From assembly GCF_000027125.1 (NCBI RefSeq), contig NC_017626.1: 64,000 bases of DNA; one strand, given 5' to 3'. Position 1 is the stretch's first letter. The number at the start of each line of letters is the position of its first letter. Shown here in pieces: positions 10,147-20,917 of this stretch. The position numbers and the translations under genes were made by a program. The notes below the pieces were generated by a model. It worked only from the letters and a program-made list of their open reading frames with translations, searched no databases and had not been told where the DNA came from. The DNA comes from Escherichia coli 042 (GTDB lineage: Bacteria; Pseudomonadota; Gammaproteobacteria; Enterobacterales; Enterobacteriaceae).

Positions 10147-12534
10147 TTATCCAATACGTGCTCGTGCGCGTTCCTGTTCACGGATCTGCGCCTGAATTTG
10201 TGTATAAAGCTGCGCCTGTTCATTATCGCGATCGGTCGCGGTCACGACCAGTGCGTAAGGCTCCTGCTCGCTGCTGAATGCTTCGCCCCAGTCTCTGTCC
10301 TGACGGGTAACAACAATAAACCATTTTTCATCCGGGTTACGCTGGCGAAAAGTCCAAATCGACGACTGTACCGTCCCGCGTTCCCGCTGTTGGGCTGATA
10401 CAACACGGTTAGTCTGGGCATCATCGGAGCGGGTTTCCGTCTCACTCTGCGTCTGGTGATTAAAACTGGCCTGCACTTCATCCAGCGAGCGGCCCTTAAC
10501 CAGCCGGAAACCGATCCGTGTGGCAGTATAATCCAGCCGGGTGGTACGCACGGCGGGTGAATATGCCAGCGTAACGCGGACTTCACGGGTTGCACGCTGC
10601 GATCGTAAAAAAGAAGCCGGGAAGGGCAGTTCAAAAAATTGGTGCGCGTTATTTTCTATCTGCTCTTCACATCGCATGACCACCACATTTTCAGAAGAAC
10701 GATATAACGCATCTTCATCAATGATGCCGTAGCCTGTCACGTCGCGCTCAATCTCCCGGTTTCTCGTTGCAGGCGCATTTCTATAGCTTTCTCTCATGGC
10801 CTGCGGAAAAGCCTGCGTCATCTCCTGAGAAACAGAAGCATGATTGACCAGCATTGCCCGCAGCATATTGGCAGACATTTCCGGGTATTCATTTAGCAGT
10901 CGACCCGCCAGATGTGTGATATACGGCGCGGCAAAGCTGGTGCCGCTGAGTTCTTTAAACAGCGTATTACCCTGAAACTGGTGATGGCAGCTTAATACGC
11001 CCAGACCGCGCATATGTGCCTGCCATTGCCCTTGCCGAACGTTGGAAGCGACATTGCCACCGTGCGCTACAACGTCAGGTTTAAACGCGCCTTTTACCGA
11101 CGGGCCGTGTCGGGTAAAAGGCGACGGTTGGTTTTCCGTTGCCGGGCTGAGATGCTGAATATCGCCAGGCCTACGCTGCGCATCCAACGTTGCGTTATGT
11201 CTGGCGACGCTGCCCACTGTCAGTACGTTCAGCGCCGGAGCCGGATCGATGATTACGCTGTCCTCATGCAACAGGTAGTCAGGATATTCATCCCGCCAGC
11301 TATTTTGCGGCACCGGAGGATCGTCGCTGCCTGCGAAATTCCCCGCAGAGACGACAAACAGTACATTATATTGCCGCGCCAGCGTATCTAACAGATACGC
11401 CATACCGCGAATATGTTTGCCGTCATAGGGCGCATTAGCATTCCCCAGCGACAGATTGAAAATGCGGCAACCGAGATCGGTAAAATACGCGACGGCGGCT
11501 GTTAGTGTGCTTTCAATCGTTTCGGCATTGAATTCAGCCCGCTCGTTCAGTACTTTCCCGTTATACAGCCATAGCTGCGGCTGCCAGAAATTGCTCTGGT
11601 TACAGGCTTCAACGTCGCCATACAGAGCAATACTCGCTACGGCGGTGCCATGCCCCTCTTGATCAAACGCATCCTGATTGGGAATAAAGCTGGCGCTTTC
11701 AGCAATGGCGGCACTTAACAGAGGGTGATTGGTGTTGATGCCGCTATCCAGAATACAGACTCTGGCCGCATTTACCGCAGGCGAAATCAGATGCTCTGGA
11801 AGTGTATTGATGTCCCGGTTAATTTGTTGATAGCTAATGCCGCTGGACGGTGGCAAATCAACCAACCTGACGTCCCGATGCGCTAACAGGTATTCTGCTT
11901 GCGCGAGCGAAACCTCTATCCGGTACATCAACAGGCTGTCCAGATTGACTTTATCCCGCCAGAGAATCCCCTGCTCTCTGAGCCAATTTTCAAAACGGGT
12001 ATACAGGTCGATACGTCTGGGGTGATGCGCCACATCGACTGGCCAGAGCTCCACATCCAGATTAAAGCGTTCCGCTACAGGAAAACCATAGCGCCGGAGT
12101 GCCCAGCTTTTACGATCTTCCGCCGACCAGCCGTCAATGCCGTCAAGCGCTTCGAGAATATTCCTGTAGGTTAGGTCCGTACGGGGAAGCCCCAGTTGCG
12201 CCAGATGGGTTTCGAAGGTTGTCAGACCCTGCTCATTAGTGAAAACGATACAGACCTGTTTACCTTCCTGACTGATGAACTCCACGCCGTGATGTATCAA
12301 TGCTGAAAAATTCATTGTGCCGCTGTAGTTCAGCTTGAGGATATAGCGCCCGTCATCGGCGCTGCCGGGTACTTGTGCCAGCGTTGGGCGCAAGGTATGG
12401 AGTTGCGTCAACAGCATTTGCCCGTGCTGGCGTAAATCGCCCCTGCGAATACGGGGCATATTGACTCTGCGGGTCCGTCGGTCGTTTTGAAGTGGTGCTT
12501 TGGTAATCGTTAGATGCTGATAATTCGCCGTCAT
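10147..12534 (-). CDS. Subtilisin-like S8 serine peptidase with ~250-aa N-terminal extension (IetS-like)
   Basis: 795 aa; catalytic D (VCILDSGIN), H (HGTAVASIA), S (GTSFAAPYITH); starts 9 nt after the ATPase stop. Confidence 0.8.
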   Translation of the reverse strand: MTANYQHLTITKAPLQNDRRTRRVNMPRIRRGDLRQHGQMLLTQLHTLRPTLAQVPGSADDGRYILKLNYSGTMNFSALIHHGVEFISQEGKQVCIVFTNEQGLTTFETHLAQLGLPRTDLTYRNILEALDGIDGWSAEDRKSWALRRYGFPVAERFNLDVELWPVDVAHHPRRIDLYTRFENWLREQGILWRDKVNLDSLLMYRIEVSLAQAEYLLAHRDVRLVDLPPSSGISYQQINRDINTLPEHLISPAVNAARVCILDSGINTNHPLLSAAIAESASFIPNQDAFDQEGHGTAVASIALYGDVEACNQSNFWQPQLWLYNGKVLNERAEFNAETIESTLTAAVAYFTDLGCRIFNLSLGNANAPYDGKHIRGMAYLLDTLARQYNVLFVVSAGNFAGSDDPPVPQNSWRDEYPDYLLHEDSVIIDPAPALNVLTVGSVARHNATLDAQRRPGDIQHLSPATENQPSPFTRHGPSVKGAFKPDVVAHGGNVASNVRQGQWQAHMRGLGVLSCHHQFQGNTLFKELSGTSFAAPYITHLAGRLLNEYPEMSANMLRAMLVNHASVSQEMTQAFPQAMRESYRNAPATRNREIERDVTGYGIIDEDALYRSSENVVVMRCEEQIENNAHQFFELPFPASFLRSQRATREVRVTLAYSPAVRTTRLDYTATRIGFRLVKGRSLDEVQASFNHQTQSETETRSDDAQTNRVVSAQQRERGTVQSSIWTFRQRNPDEKWFIVVTRQDRDWGEAFSSEQEPYALVVTATDRDNEQAQLYTQIQAQIREQERARARIG

Positions 12535-12543
12535 GGCAGTCCC

Positions 12544-13524
12544 TTATCGGTGGGTTCTGGCGTTTTCTCGCTGAGTTGCGTTTTTTAAATCTTTTAGCGT
12601 CAGGAATTCCTGATGACGCAGGATCATATGCTTGGTTGCCCGACGGACAATGCGCTCAATATCTGCACCGCTTTTCCCGAGCAGCAGGGATAATAGCTCG
12701 CTATCGTCCAGCTCAAACTGACGGCGGGTGCCGCGTAATTTTAACGCCAACAGCTCACGTAACTGCGCCTGATCCGGCAACGGAAATTCAATCACTTCAT
12801 CAAATCGACGCCAGATGGCGCTGTCCAGAATGTGTTCATGGTTAGTGGCCGCCAGAATCAGGCTTTTACCCTGATAAGCATCCATCATTTGTAAAACGGC
12901 ATTGACGACCCGGCGTAATTCACCGTGTTCGCCGCTGTCGCCACGCTCTTTTCCTATGGCATCAAACTCATCGAACAACACCACCATTGGGTGCTCTGCA
13001 ATAAAATCGAAAATTTTACGCAGATTGGCGGCGGTTTCTCCCAAAAACGAAGACACCAGTACGTCGAGGCGGACAATTGCCAGCGGCATGTCCAGTTCAA
13101 AAGCGATAACCTCTGCTGTCAGCGTTTTACCGCAGCCCGGCGGTCCGAAAAACATGATCTTACTGGCTGCTTTCATCCCGTAGCTATGCAATACATCGCT
13201 ACGCCGGTGCTCTTCAAGGAGTTCATCAATCACTGTAGCGCTGGTCGCCGGGAGGATCATTTCATCAAGGCTGCGCTGTGGCTGCCGGAGATCCAGCAAC
13301 GGCAGGCCCCTTTCTTTATCTATCGGTGCTTGAGGAAGCGCAGGCGAGCGCGAAGCCTGAACAAGACGATCGCCGTAAAGAATATGCTCCAGATCGTTAG
13401 CCAGAAGGTGGTGCTGTTTCTGACGTTCCTCATCAATAATGGCTTCCGAAACACGACGGAAAGTAGCGGTATCACCCGTTGCGCCCGCTTTTATTAGTTG
13501 CCTTAATATCTTACCGTTAGCCAT
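12544..13524 (-). CDS. AAA+ ATPase (IetA-like)
   Basis: Walker A GPPGCGKT, Walker B VVLFDEFD, sensor region LILAATN; ATG at 13524 has an AGGAG RBS (ORF track uses an upstream GTG at 13548). Confidence 0.8.
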   Translation of the reverse strand: MANGKILRQLIKAGATGDTATFRRVSEAIIDEERQKQHHLLANDLEHILYGDRLVQASRSPALPQAPIDKERGLPLLDLRQPQRSLDEMILPATSATVIDELLEEHRRSDVLHSYGMKAASKIMFFGPPGCGKTLTAEVIAFELDMPLAIVRLDVLVSSFLGETAANLRKIFDFIAEHPMVVLFDEFDAIGKERGDSGEHGELRRVVNAVLQMMDAYQGKSLILAATNHEHILDSAIWRRFDEVIEFPLPDQAQLRELLALKLRGTRRQFELDDSELLSLLLGKSGADIERIVRRATKHMILRHQEFLTLKDLKNATQRENARTHR

Positions 13525-13549: not shown

Positions 13550-16416
13550 TCATGCGGAAGGTGAACTCAACGTCCAGCTCACCGCGAATAATTGACGGGA
13601 CGTTATTTCCGTCGCCAGCTTTTGCTCGACCTCTTCCAGCAGACGGTCCTCTTCCTGCTCGATTTTTTTCTTTTCATCATGATACTGCAACATGATGCTA
13701 TCCCGCTCGCGTTCCAGCACCTTTAATGCGCGCTTGGCTTCCATTTTCTCTTTTAGAGAAGGAAGCTGACGGGCGGCTTTACGCGCCTCTTTAATTTCTG
13801 CATCTAACTGTTTGATACGTAAGTCCAGCGCGATACGTCGATCTTCTGACCAGCGTTCAAGTTTTTCTACTTCTTCATTGTAATAAAGTTCGTTATCGCG
13901 TTCGACCTGTTGGATAAAAGAATGCCGTAAAACCTCACATTGTGTTGTTAACGCAGGCAGCAAAGGCTGTTCTTCGACAGATGTTATCTCTGATAATGGC
14001 AGGCGAAGCAGACGGGATACGGTTTCCTCTGCCAGCACTTCGCCATTTTCTGTAACAGCGACGGTCAATAGTTTCTCTCGCTGTTGCTCCTGATTTCCGA
14101 TGCTGACTTTTGCCAGCAACAGCTGTCCCGATTTCCCGCAGAACAGTTTAACATCGGCCAGTTGTCCGCTTCTGGGTTGGTAGATGAAATGGAGCTTCTG
14201 GCAAACTGGGGATGTGGAAAGGCTTGCCCCTTCATGCAGGGCAGCATCAATCAGTTGCTTCCCATATCCCTGGCTGGGCCGGAAGAATTCGGCATCTTTT
14301 TCATCCGCAATGGGCCAGTTGACGTCAAAATACTTTCCTCTGGAACGAAAACCCGTCTCAGAACGTTGAAAATCGCTCTCGTCGCTCAGAAACATTTCCG
14401 CCAGCAGCAACAGATTTTCCTGGTAATCGTTTAACTGCGCGAGGGTGGTTGTACGTCGGGTTTTCAGATTGCGGACCACATCAACGTCAAAATGCTCGAA
14501 TAATGAACGCCGGGTTTCATTCTCCCGATTTTCCAGTTGATCTTTGAGTTCATCCTGCAGCTGATTAAATTCCTGTTCAATTTGTTCATCGGAGCGGCAG
14601 TGCTGGTATATCTCATGAATACGTCGTTCAATATCAACACCTGATTCGATCGACCCCAGAATGTCATCGGATGCGCCAAACACCCCTTCAAAAAGCTGGA
14701 ACTTCTGGCTCAATAATTCAAACACGCGCTGATCGGCACGGTTGCCTTTATTAATAAAATTAACCACCACGACATCGTGTTTTTGTCCATAGCGGTGAAC
14801 ACGCCCGATACGTTGCTCCACGCGCTGCGGATTCCACGGTAAATCATAATTGATTAACAGCGAACAAAACTGGAGGTTGATACCTTCTGCGCCCGCTTCA
14901 GTACAAATCATCAGGGTGCCTTCGTCCCTGAATTTTTCAACCAGCGCTGCCTTCATATCCGCCGTACTCGAACCGGAAACCCGGCCAGAGTTCTGATGTT
15001 TCTCCAGCCAGTCGCTGTAAATCTTCTTCGACACCGCATCGCTATTGCTGCCATTGAGCAGAACCACTTCTCCCTCGTAGCCACTTTCTGACAACAGTTG
15101 CGCCAGCCAGGTCTGGGTGCGTACGGACTCGGTAAAAATGACCGCCTTACGTAATCCGCCCAGTTCAGCCGTAAAGGTAAAGGCCCGATCGAGAACGCGT
15201 AACAGTGCTTCGGCCTTGGCGTTTTTGGTAATCGATGCCGCTAAAGTCTTATAATTTTTTAACTGGTCAATTTCGGCCTGTAGCGCCTGAGGATCGATGG
15301 TATCTTCGTCATCAATGCCTTCTTCATCGCTGTAATCGTCGTAATTTTCATAATCCGTCAGCGCATCCAGCACCGGCATTTTACTTTCAAGACGGTGGAT
15401 CATCGTTTCCAGCGTTCCCTGGATCGCTGTAGACGATGAGGCCAGAATTTTACGAATGACTAACGTTACTAGGTGACGCGCGCCGCTTTTGATCGCCAGT
15501 AGATCGTCCCGCTGCAAATAAGAGGAAACCTGTTTATAGAGCACTTCTTCGTCTTCCGTCGGACGAAAGTCTTCGGTTATTGAATGGCGTCGGGTAAAAC
15601 TGATCCCGCCTTCCTGCTGAACCTGTCGACGAAGCGTTCGATTACAGATTTTATTCAGACGAACCCTTAATAATGCCAGTTCTGCATCGTCAATATTCTG
15701 TCGGGAATAACGGGCCTTGAACGAAGCAAGGTCGCCGAAAAAATGAGGATCAATCACGGAAATCAGGCCGTAAAGCTCAAGAATACTGTTTTGTAGCGGC
15801 GTGGCGGAAAGCAGTATTTTTTTTCTGCCGGACAGTGCGCCACTGAGTTTTTTGGCTGTTTTAGCGCCATCGTTCTTGTAGATATTACGCAGTTTATGCG
15901 CCTCATCCATGACGACCAGATCCCACGGGATTCGTGCCAGCTCGTGCTCTTTACGGGCAGCGAATTCGTATGAACAAATGCAGATCGCCGCTTTCCCGGT
16001 TGCATTTTCAATATCAAAGGGATTATCGCTCCCCTCTTTAACCATTTGATTGAAGATCTTCGCTTCAATAATTTGTGAAGGCAGCGAAAATTTCTCTTCC
16101 AGCTCCTGGCTCCACTGCTTGCGTAGCGTTGCGGGTGCAATCAGCAACAGTTTTCGGCGGCGTTCAGCCCATTTTGCGCCAAAATCAGGCTGGCCTCAAT
16201 AGTTTTCCCCAGTCCCACTTCATCGGCCAGGATCACGCCATTCGACAGGGGAGATGCCAGCGCAAACATCGCAGCCTCTACCTGATGAGGATTCATATCA
16301 ACCCGTGCGCTGGCAATAGTTTGCGTCAGCGAGTCCTCGGCTTTGCCGCTTAACGTCAACCAGTGGGCCAGATAACTACGTTGGTGATCTGAATACATTT
16401 TCATACCTTTGTGCAA
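13550..16416 (-). pseudogene. SNF2-family helicase with ~450-aa coiled-coil-rich C-terminal extension, frameshifted near the N-terminus in this sequence
   Basis: Motif I ILADEVGLGKTIEA in the 16141..16416 piece; motif II VMDEAHKLRN and LLSATPLQN in the 13550..16147 piece. One extra nucleotide in the A4 or T4 run at plus 16172-16184 restores a continuous ~955-aa frame (...LILAQKWAERRRKLLLIAPATLRKQW...). Confidence 0.75.
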
Positions 16417-16698
16417 AGAGGGGGAGGGGAGCGCGACCGTATTTTACTGATATATGAACCGGGTTGCTAATCTGGAAGATGGCTCGCATTACATCCCCTT
16501 GTCGTTCACCGGGCTTCGCGGTCTCTTTTCCTCGCGTCTGCAAAATCAGGCGCCGGGCTTGACCTCCTGAACACTCCTTAGTGACGACACAATGGCGCGC
16601 TCGCGCCTTTTTTGTGCCGGTGCTCGGCTACACCTCAATGGCGGACCGGGCGGGGGCGTCGCAAGGCGCGCTGGATGGACTGTTCTGAGGAGGCAGGA

Positions 16699-19381: not shown

Positions 19382-20644
19382 TTATTTTAATGGGTTATTA
19401 ATCTTTGCATATTCAAATGGACTGATAAATTTTTCTCTGTTTGCATCCAGAAAATCGGCCCACCACTGTAGCATCAGTCGCCGTTCTTCCAGATGTTCTG
19501 CTTTATGAATGTAAGCAGCACGTACACCGTTACGTTCCTGATGGCTCATCTGACGTTCCACAGCATCGCGGGACCACAAACCTGATTCAATCAATGCACT
19601 GCACGCCATCGCCCGGAATCCATGGCCACAGACTTCCTGGGTTGTGTCATACCCCATCACCCTCAGGGCTTTATTTACAGTATTTTCACTGATTGGTTTA
19701 CGCGGGTCATGTGCACCCGTAAATATCAGACCATTTTCACCTGCCCATGTCTGAAGTTCTGTCAGTATGGCTACAGCCTGTTTACTGAGTGGCACAAGAT
19801 GTGGTGTCCGCATCTTGGAGCCCCGGTGTGAGAATTTTACGCCAGGCAGAGGTTCGCGTTCGGCTGGAATAGTCCACATGGCATTGTCAATATCAATTTC
19901 AGACCAGCGGGCATATCTGAGTTCACTGGAACGAATAAAAACCAGTAAATTCAGCATAACGGCAAGCCGGGTGACAGGCTGGCCTTTATAACCGTCAATA
20001 CGCGACAGAAGTTCAGGCAGGCGTGAAAGATTCAGAGCGGGGCGATGCTGGCGTTTTACCGTGGTCAATGCACCAGCCATATCCAGAGCCGGGTTATATC
20101 TGATGATGCCAGACTGTACGGCGTAACGCATTACAGCAGATATTCTTTGCTGCAGACGACTGGCGATTTCATAAATTTGTTTTGCTTCTGCAGCACGAAC
20201 AGGGATAAGCAGGTCCGGGGTATTGAGTGTTGTGATATCCCGGTTGCCGATAAAGGGGAAAACGTGTGTCTCGAGGCTTTTGAGTACTTTATCGCTGTGT
20301 GATTGTGCCCATTGTTTATTACTGGCATGCCAGCGTCGTGCAATATGTTCAAAAGAGAGCTGTAAATCAGGGACTACTTTTTTAACTCTTTTCTGTTCGC
20401 AAGGGTCAATCCCCTCTGAAATCAGTTTTCGGGCCTCATCCCGTTTTGTACGAGCTTCGGAGAGAGAAACTTCTGGATACACACCAAGTGCCAGAGTCTT
20501 CTCCTTACCCAGAATACGATAACGGAGACGCCAGTAACGGGAACCATTAGGATGTACCAGCAGGAACATGCCAGCCCCGTCAGTGAGTTTATAAGCCTTG
20601 TCAGTAGGCTTTGCTGCCCGGATTTTTGCGTCAGTCAGTGCCAT
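19382..20644 (-). CDS. int: P4-family tyrosine integrase
   Basis: 420 aa, MALTDAKIRAAKPTDKAYKLTDGAGMFLLVHPNGSRYWRLRYR...; C-terminal catalytic region HGFRAMA...RAAYIH; located ~200 bp from the 3' end of tRNA-Phe. Confidence 0.9.
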   Translation of the reverse strand: MALTDAKIRAAKPTDKAYKLTDGAGMFLLVHPNGSRYWRLRYRILGKEKTLALGVYPEVSLSEARTKRDEARKLISEGIDPCEQKRVKKVVPDLQLSFEHIARRWHASNKQWAQSHSDKVLKSLETHVFPFIGNRDITTLNTPDLLIPVRAAEAKQIYEIASRLQQRISAVMRYAVQSGIIRYNPALDMAGALTTVKRQHRPALNLSRLPELLSRIDGYKGQPVTRLAVMLNLLVFIRSSELRYARWSEIDIDNAMWTIPAEREPLPGVKFSHRGSKMRTPHLVPLSKQAVAILTELQTWAGENGLIFTGAHDPRKPISENTVNKALRVMGYDTTQEVCGHGFRAMACSALIESGLWSRDAVERQMSHQERNGVRAAYIHKAEHLEERRLMLQWWADFLDANREKFISPFEYAKINNPLK

Positions 20645-20841
20645 AGTTCAGCCTTCTGAATGCGTTAAAGAGGGTACAAATTCTGTCGAACTGGGGTATG
20701 CCCACAATTATACCCACACAATGAGGTTGATGTGGGGGGAATCTGGTTGAGTTCGGTAGAATTGATTTGGAGGCAGGACGCTTAAATCGTGGCGTCCTGG
20801 AATGAAAAACGGACCTCCGTGGAGGTCCGTTGATATGAATT

Positions 20842-20917
20842 TGGTGCCCGGACTCGGAATCGAACCAAGGACACGGGGATTTTCAATCCCCTGCTCTACC
20901 GACTGAGCTATCCGGGC
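20842..20917 (-). tRNA. pheU: tRNA-Phe (GAA)
   Basis: Exact 76-nt tRNA-Phe as reverse complement (GCCCGGATAGCTCAGTCGGTAGAGCAGGGGATTGAAAATCCCCGTGTCCTTGGTTCGATTCCGAGTCCGGGCACCA); followed by yjdC-dsbD-cutA as at K-12 pheU. Confidence 0.95.

Follow-up and report, generated by a model that had tools for sequence, protein, structure and literature searches.

A 64,000-nt stretch of the genome of Escherichia coli 042 (contig NC_017626.1; hereafter called the window) carries two adjacent genes for an AAA+ ATPase and an S8 subtilase, which we assign by profile matching to the IetAS (Y4kL/Y4kK) family of phage defense systems. The two genes lie within a five-gene operon, between a gene for an SNF2-type helicase and the mod and res genes of a type III-like restriction-modification system. 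We propose that IetAS is an abortive-infection cargo of this SNF2-mod-res operon and that the protease, IetS, would be restrained by the ATPase, IetA. For this reading as a whole we estimate a probability of about 0.6. Its parts are not equally firm: we are highly confident of the identity of the pair and of its embedding, and the specific mechanism of restraint and release is tentative. The system is of a known kind, and this very cassette was almost certainly validated by experiment in 2026 under the name ietHAS.

The IetAS pair and its operon

IetA matched the PADLOC profile for IetA (PDLC02196) over residues 2-322 (350 bits, E = 3.9e-105), and IetS matched the corresponding IetS profile (PDLC02198) with 1206 bits over 791 of the 795 profile positions. 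Both matches are far beyond chance. An earlier note, made from the nucleotide sequence alone, had named ATPase plus subtilase as the composition of Iet and had recommended a comparison with hidden Markov models (HMMs) of IetA and IetS. The significant similarity found in this comparison, the fitting gene order and adjacency, and an invariant catalytic triad bear this out, and on this evidence we regard the pair as a true member of the IetAS family.

The scores against the NCBIfam equivalogs of the Gao-2020 prototypes remained below their cut-offs (267.5 against 510 for IteA, 150 against 900 for IteS). Therefore, the pair represents a subfamily other than the Gao-2020 prototypes within the same Iet superfamily. 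An AAA+ ATPase followed by an S8 peptidase, both cytoplasmic, is what it has in common with the IetAS of Gao et al. 2020, the IteA/IteS equivalogs and ietAS of Bacillus cereus m1293. It differs from the Gao-2020 system in that it falls into the PDLC02196/PDLC02198 clade of PADLOC and has the domains Y4kK_N and Y4kK_2nd. These two domains account for the N-terminal region of IetS in the precomputed Pfam annotation; a Pfam scan of the protein returned Peptidase_S8 alone (residues 258-573). An exhaustive search at E <= 1e-30 recovered 510 clusters (50% identity) of the IetAS family, and the genera with homologs at 60-70% identity include Pseudomonas, Vibrio, Alteromonas and Burkholderia; such homologs are found even in cyanobacteria.

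Both genes are encoded on the minus strand (Table 1), with 9 nt between the ietA stop codon and the ietS start codon, and the order ietA-ietS is kept in all homologous loci examined. IetA contains the Walker A motif GPPGCGKT and the Walker B motif VVLFDEFD. The catalytic residues of IetS lie in the motifs CILDSG (D263), GHGTAVAS (H295) and GTSFAAP (S533); all three, together with the oxyanion-hole residue N399, are invariant in an alignment of 67 sequences from diverse family members. The two open reading frames (ORFs), with their sizes, their spacing and every quoted motif, are as the earlier note had described them.

IetA consists of an N-terminal domain of ~105 residues followed by a classic-clade AAA+ module, for which the nearest solved structures are the D2 domain of p97/Cdc48, NSF and proteasomal ATPases. 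It also contains a pore-loop-like segment (SSFLGET) and an arginine-finger region (WRRFD), and both are kept among IetA homologs, the pore loop as SS(F/Y)LGET (aromatic-hydrophobic-Gly). Classic-clade AAA+ proteins with such a pore loop and arginine fingers are hexameric motors that thread substrate proteins, and the features of IetA point to a motor of this type.

Hydropathy analysis revealed no signal peptide or membrane segment in IetS (maximum KD(11) of 0.46 in the first 60 residues, maximum KD(19) of 1.36 overall), and the protein is on these values a predicted cytoplasmic protease. The structural check of the subtilase extensions that had been suggested in the earlier note gave a confident AlphaFold2 model, built from 67 diverse sequences (pLDDT 89, pTM 0.85). 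In the model, a disordered basic loop (residues 18-31) precedes two β-α-β-β-α(-β) modules (~64-112 and ~130-226), the S8 core (~255-600), a C-terminal β-sandwich (617-768) and a terminal helix. The top matches of the model in a Foldseek search against the PDB were subtilases whose solved structures include the propeptide and/or a C-terminal β-barrel, among them ProN-Tk-SP (3afg, 665 columns), KP-43, PCSK9, EpiP and unprocessed pro-subtilisin E. Because generic ferredoxin-like folds are interspersed among these matches at similar Z, it is only probable that the N-terminal ~250 residues of IetS are retained, duplicated propeptide-like domains. The C-terminal extension, as modeled, is reminiscent of the additional β-jelly-roll domains in Tk-SP and KP-43. 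No solved structure of IetS or IetA was found, only generic subtilases (at most 22% identity) and ATPases of the p97/NSF type.

The pair is part of a single operon. Its five genes are arranged head to tail on the minus strand in the order SNF2 helicase-ietA-ietS-mod-res, with gaps of 25, 9 and 9 nt and then a 4-nt overlap of the mod stop with the res start, and no convincing minus-strand terminator was detected between them. The earlier note had placed the pair between a helicase and a restriction-modification system, and the SNF2/DrmD-like gene, the type III Mod and the Res are indeed all real. The helicase matches DrmD with 594 bits in PADLOC and with 588 in NCBIfam, where the cut-off is 950. 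In E. coli O104:H4 it is intact, with K65 (GLGK65T) and D165 (D165EAH) in one frame. Mod shows the beta-class order, with DPPY68 followed by the target-recognition domain and FAGSG336; the PADLOC profile MTase_III (PDLC03636) matches its two halves apart in the window, and in O104:H4 the gene is a single coding sequence of 1629 nt. Res matches REase_III (PDLC03648) with 2117 bits and contains the motifs GVGKT76 and DEAH224 as well as a C-terminal nuclease motif, PDx14EPK, at residues 873-889.

Residues ~140-320 of Mod are 15-30% identical between the E. coli, Salmonella and Klebsiella cassettes, compared to 90-97% for the other genes of these cassettes. The recognition domain has been swapped between cassettes, which implies differing methylation specificities and is as expected of a working restriction-modification system. 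No recognition motif for the O104:H4 Mod was found in the methylome literature.

Table 1. Positions of the features discussed. Numbers refer to the window, except where they are preceded by the name of a comparison locus (L and three digits).
Feature	Position	Strand	Remarks
ietA (AAA+ ATPase, antitoxin/regulator)	13524..12544	minus	326 aa; ATG start; AGGAG 7 nt upstream
ietS (S8 subtilase, toxin/effector)	12534..10147	minus	795 aa
SNF2/DrmD-like helicase gene ("ietH")	16398..13550	minus	949 aa when intact; frameshifted here
Type III-like mod (beta-class N6-adenine methyltransferase)	10137..8510	minus	542 aa when intact; frameshifted here
Type III-like res	8507..5637	minus	956-aa SF2 helicase
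Sigma-70-like -35/-10 upstream of the SNF2 start (TTAGCA-18-TAAAAT)	16441..16470	minus	Consensus scan; candidate operon promoter, weak
97-aa ORF directly after res	5255..5548	minus	Membership in the unit uncertain
Tyrosine integrase (island boundary)	19382-20644	minus	
tRNA-Phe pheU (island boundary)	20842-20917	minus	Adjoins dicD/dsbD; aspA and groESL near
mod genes compared	L001 18363-19991; L011 12398-14017; L012 12398-14011		

The number of sigma-70-like sites in the region is not above the shuffled expectation. The small ORF after res has no PADLOC match and has a counterpart with 70% identity after the Klebsiella res (L012 16963-17469).

The SNF2-Mod-Res frame and its cargo

The five-gene block is restricted to an enterobacterial clade of IetS (~88-100% identity), in which the Salmonella and Klebsiella copies have identical spacing. 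IetS homologs at 61-70% identity belong to stand-alone pairs without SNF2, mod or res, which are located in Pseudomonas putida, in an SXT-type integrative and conjugative element (ICE) of Vibrio cholerae, in a P4-like element of Dickeya and in islands of Klebsiella and Cronobacter. Embedded and stand-alone pairs are colinear, IetA being 75-79% identical at equal length and IetS 61-70% identical, and no domain has been gained or lost.

The homologs of the SNF2 helicase at 63-72% identity were found in an SNF2-X-Mod-Res arrangement in four out of four cases. Slot X contains an ABC ATPase + DUF4276 pair, which is HEC-01, in Aeromonas, a Schlafen/AlbA_2-HATPase_c_4 protein in Methylobacter and Endozoicomonas, and a 252-aa protein without PADLOC match in Vibrio metschnikovii. 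A wider survey, in which one genome per species was scanned by SNF2 alignment, yielded 80 loci that span many phyla and have identities of 38-70%. They were annotated by ORF calling and BLASTP against the window proteins, and 71 of them were assessable. An N6/N4 methyltransferase homolog is located downstream on the same strand in 55 of the 71. Of these 55 loci, 22 have an empty slot between SNF2 and Mod (-16 to +54 nt) and 33 have a filled one (365-5752 nt); where Res is orthologous to that of the window (n = 19), 4 slots are vacant and 15 are occupied. PADLOC identified HEC-01, PDC-S13, LmuB-like ATPases, HEC-06/GmrSD-like, PD-Lambda-2_B-like and PDC-S02 proteins as slot fillers, and further AbiU, HerA, PDC-S06, AbiD and Ppl-like proteins. 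IetAS was found in none of the 80 surveyed loci.

By comparison of these loci, the SNF2 helicase is shown to belong evolutionarily with Mod and Res and not with IetAS, which makes "ietH" the first gene of the frame. IetAS itself looks like a recent capture, in Enterobacteriaceae, into a slot that is elsewhere empty or occupied by other defense effectors. We did not find a description of SNF2-Mod-Res as a frame in the literature. Defense systems embedded inside others are an established phenomenon (Payne et al.), and type III restriction-modification systems and ietAS co-localize non-randomly in E. coli (Wu et al.).

The frame shares features with two named systems. Hma (Payne et al. 2021, 2024) likewise consists of an SNF2-type helicase, a methyltransferase and a third ATPase, with a slot for diverse defense modules, and HEC-01 and HEC-06 also occupy the slot of the SNF2-Mod-Res family. 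However, Hma has an m5C methyltransferase and HmaC, whereas here Mod is a beta-class N6-adenine enzyme and Res, of type III, contains a nuclease motif. Membership in Hma was rejected, as the match to HmaA reached 136 bits, Res had no match to HmaC and the methyltransferase is of the N6_N4 type. Class 1 DISARM is similar in that the helicase has DrmD as its top named match and is encoded close to an adenine methyltransferase. It was rejected as well, with no drmA, drmB or drmC in the operon or its flanks and a DrmD score below the NCBIfam cut-off. Judged by these matches, the SNF2-Mod-Res frame is neither Hma nor DISARM.

Further observations were made in the compared loci. The V. metschnikovii frame (L016 12823-16795) contains two tandem full-length Mod genes before Res. 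The slots of L020, L021, L040, L045, L047 and L049 encode proteins of 180-493 aa without PADLOC match, which are defense candidates by their embedding. A slot pair of 298 and 795 aa in Methylotenera (L030) was considered as a distant IetAS and rejected; it represents PDC-S13 and an LmuB-like ATPase. Among the stand-alone pairs, that of V. cholerae (L005-L007 9014-16055) is followed by genes for an OLD-family ATPase/TOPRIM protein and a UvrD helicase (Gabija-like) and is flanked by RecT/SSB and F-type transfer genes, typical of SXT-type ICEs. In Dickeya chrysanthemi (L008 1831-12385), an AbiTii gene immediately precedes the pair, and the P4-like element that contains them, with an integrase and a Phage_GPA primase-like gene, represents a satellite-type defense hotspot.

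An E. coli variant of ietAS with an extra SNF2/DrmD-like helicase, ietH, was recently reported as "ietHAS" (Liu-DS4; Nucleic Acids Research (NAR) 2026, PMC13069673). According to that report, ietHAS protected MG1655 against T7, and the ietH mutations K65A (Walker A) and D165A (DEAH) led to loss of defense and to cytotoxicity on induction. Protease activity was needed, attempts to clone an ietA mutant failed, and the system occurs in >1.5% of E. coli genomes; its anti-phage mechanism is stated as unknown (PMC13069673). The operon described here has the same succession of an SNF2/DrmD-like helicase, an AAA+ ATPase and an S8 protease, the helicase stop lying 25 nt before the ietA start. Additionally, the published K65/D165 numbering coincides with the lysine of Walker A and the aspartate of DEAH in the intact O104:H4 helicase. 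Two differences were noted. The report treats the helicase as gained by ietAS and leaves mod and res unmentioned, whereas every natural copy analyzed here has mod-res; and the helicase of the window is frameshifted, with K65 and D165 not in one reading frame. The earlier note had pictured the pair as embedded next to a helicase, and this neighbor is real, but it is not a bystander, being reported as the essential third component ietH (PMC13069673).

Frameshifts, island and distribution

Two of the five genes are frameshifted in the window. In the SNF2 gene, a 1-nt deletion at position 16172 (A5 to A4, ~codon 76) puts the Walker A lysine K65 out of frame with the remainder of the motor. In mod, a 1-nt deletion at position 9416 (GG to G, ~codon 241, within the recognition domain) results in two ORFs. 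Neither deletion was present in 65 near-identical E. coli cassettes from RefSeq (0/65). The 17.7-kb island segment differs from that of O104:H4 by 17 substitutions and two single-base deletions, and 36,292 nt of adjacent core genome showed 229 mismatches and 0 gaps when compared to a relative. Because this adjacent core genome is free of insertions and deletions, the frameshifts are probably real and not assembly errors, and sequencing error is an unlikely source of them. Phase variation of mod and ietH was also considered and is unsupported, the runs being only A5 and GG and of one length in all 65 relatives. The earlier note had recognized the helicase and restriction-modification neighbors, which are present, but had missed both frameshifts.

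The ietAS segment is 100% identical to that of E. coli O104:H4 and related strains. A type III Res depends on Mod for its activity, and mod is frameshifted; therefore, the strain is probably without restriction function. Taken together, strain 042 has probably lost restriction, helicase function and coupling and has kept ietAS unchanged. An intact ietAS beside a decayed helicase and mod fits autonomy or addictiveness of ietAS.

Complete E. coli genomes contained ietAS in 73 of 5426 cases (1.35%), always on the chromosome, and PLSDB plasmids gave no match. The SNF2 gene and res were each detected in the same 73 genomes, which divide 65/8 by identity for these genes as they do for ietAS. The operon is part of an integrative island at tRNA-Phe that is bounded by an integrase gene and pheU (Table 1). 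The same integrase-bearing island is located at pheU (dicD/dsbD) in the window (19382-20917) and at pheV (yqgA/speC) in O104:H4 (L001 29237-30772), and the pheU site is vacant in strain CH4796 (L098). The O104:H4 pheV island with the operon also carries pic. Positions 1-1137 of the window are part of this serine-protease autotransporter gene (99.8% identity to O104:H4), and the following ~2.1 kb (1138-3272) differ from the O104:H4 island, which has IS3 and group II intron remnants there.

Proposed mechanism, alternatives and significance

We propose that an IetA hexamer would spend ATP to hold a zymogen-like IetS inactive, engaging it via the substrate-threading pore, plausibly at the N-terminal region of IetS. 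The SNF2 motor could act on DNA beside the type III-like restriction enzyme and provide a second restraint and/or the infection signal. A phage that perturbs this machinery or supplies a trigger protein would cause the restraint to fail, and the freed IetS would cleave cellular and/or phage proteins, leading to arrest or death before phage release. Members of the family described earlier show related behavior. IetA/IetS of pTiC58 was first described as a plasmid-stability toxin-antitoxin pair, in which the protease is toxic and the ATPase serves as the antitoxin (PMC13069673). The Mycoplasma TA132/133 pair behaves likewise, and in these pairs loss of the ATPase alone is lethal or not clonable. 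Both differ from the operon in that they were described as plasmid-stability or chromosomal toxin-antitoxin pairs without a helicase or restriction context. In B. cereus, ietAS defends by abortive infection, with YosG of SPbeta as its trigger. No mechanistic or cryo-electron microscopy paper on IetAS was found in a literature search, and the statement of the earlier note that sensing and substrates are not established holds in the 2026 literature (PMC13069673).

A more far-reaching version of the proposal, which we consider rather doubtful, would see SNF2-Mod-Res as a widespread unnamed frame in which the cargo is coupled to the SNF2 motor and acts as a suicide effector in a second line of defense, a guard of the PrrC/EcoprrI type. 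PrrC is a latent effector that is held silent by the restriction enzyme and is released by a phage anti-restriction factor. Within the EcoprrI type Ic locus, it is the classic embedded case (Payne et al.) and resembles IetAS as a suicide effector encoded within a restriction-modification operon. It differs in being an anticodon nuclease in a type I locus, and the analogy to IetAS-Mod/Res is a hypothesis. As a guard, the cargo would fire once the helicase/restriction machinery is disabled or overloaded by a phage, for instance with an anti-restriction protein that mimics DNA, such as T7 Ocr. If so, "ietH" would be a generic sensor and safety catch common to HEC-01, AbiU, AbiD, HerA and other cargos.

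Several points weigh against IetAS as an IetA-restrained cargo of the operon. We infer the restraint of IetS by IetA, the release trigger and the cleaved substrates alike. That the cassette is ietHAS is very likely, and this identification rests on architecture, species, prevalence and residue numbering. The three-gene ietHAS construct is functional although it lacks mod and res, so the measured defense does not require the restriction half. Stand-alone homologs of the same domain composition (IetA 75-79%, IetS 61-70% identity) argue that IetAS can work without the helicase, and an intact ietAS next to a broken helicase does not sit easily with the helicase being a strict antitoxin-like component at native expression. 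The pair could instead be a self-sufficient two-gene abortive-infection module that sits in a permissive slot, sharing transcription and transfer with SNF2-Mod/Res and having no molecular link to them, which is in essence how the earlier note had pictured it. The high similarity and colinearity of the stand-alone homologs would be explained in this way, as would the many unrelated modules in the same, often empty, slot, the allele of strain 042 and the ability of two-gene ietAS from other species to defend alone. However, Walker A and DEAH mutants of the helicase abolish defense and turn cytotoxic in the three-gene construct (PMC13069673), and all 73 E. coli carriers have all parts. We regard such full independence as rather unlikely.

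Post-segregational killing of the pTiC58 kind, by which the island or else the restriction cassette is stabilized and phage defense is a secondary effect, would agree with the discovery of the family as a plasmid-stability toxin-antitoxin system and with the location on an integrative island with an integrase. It would also agree with the decay of helicase and mod beside an ietAS at 100% identity, as expected for an addictive pair. We judge it clearly improbable as the main role, as measurements have shown family members and ietHAS to be active against phages, and the other occupants of the slot are defense genes and not classical addiction modules; the two roles are not mutually exclusive. 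The pore loop and arginine fingers of IetA, typical of substrate-threading AAA+ unfoldases, and its nearest structural relatives, p97 and the proteasomal ATPases, could alternatively indicate a compartmentalized ATP-dependent protease, in which IetA would unfold phage proteins into IetS in the manner of ClpXP or PAN-20S without killing the cell. This is very unlikely in view of the toxin-antitoxin genetics in three lineages, where the protease is toxic without the ATPase, and of the reported abortive-infection phenotype. Furthermore, subtilases are monomeric, open-cleft and unchambered enzymes, and the IetS model shows no ring-forming feature. Finally, the N-terminal propeptide-like fold would suit an exported housekeeping subtilase with a chaperone-like ATPase and without a defense role. 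The earlier note had named a secretion signal together with such a propeptide as the mark of exported subtilases; no signal peptide was found, though the fold is propeptide-like. The hydropathy of IetS, the strong matches of both proteins to defense HMMs and the location among defense genes on mobile elements in every lineage examined effectively refute this possibility.

Returning to IetAS as a cargo of the SNF2-Mod-Res frame, this analysis adds to the published ietHAS the recognition of the frame that carries it, a structural reading of the IetS extensions, a natural double-frameshift allele and a testable guard hypothesis. In annotation, the five genes are best called together. The window represents a natural allele with a broken helicase and methyltransferase and an intact ietAS, within a large family whose members are found on pathogenicity islands, ICEs and satellites. 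What was described as the "third component" of ietHAS is the conserved first gene of a helicase-restriction frame with interchangeable cargo, which alters which experiments are informative.

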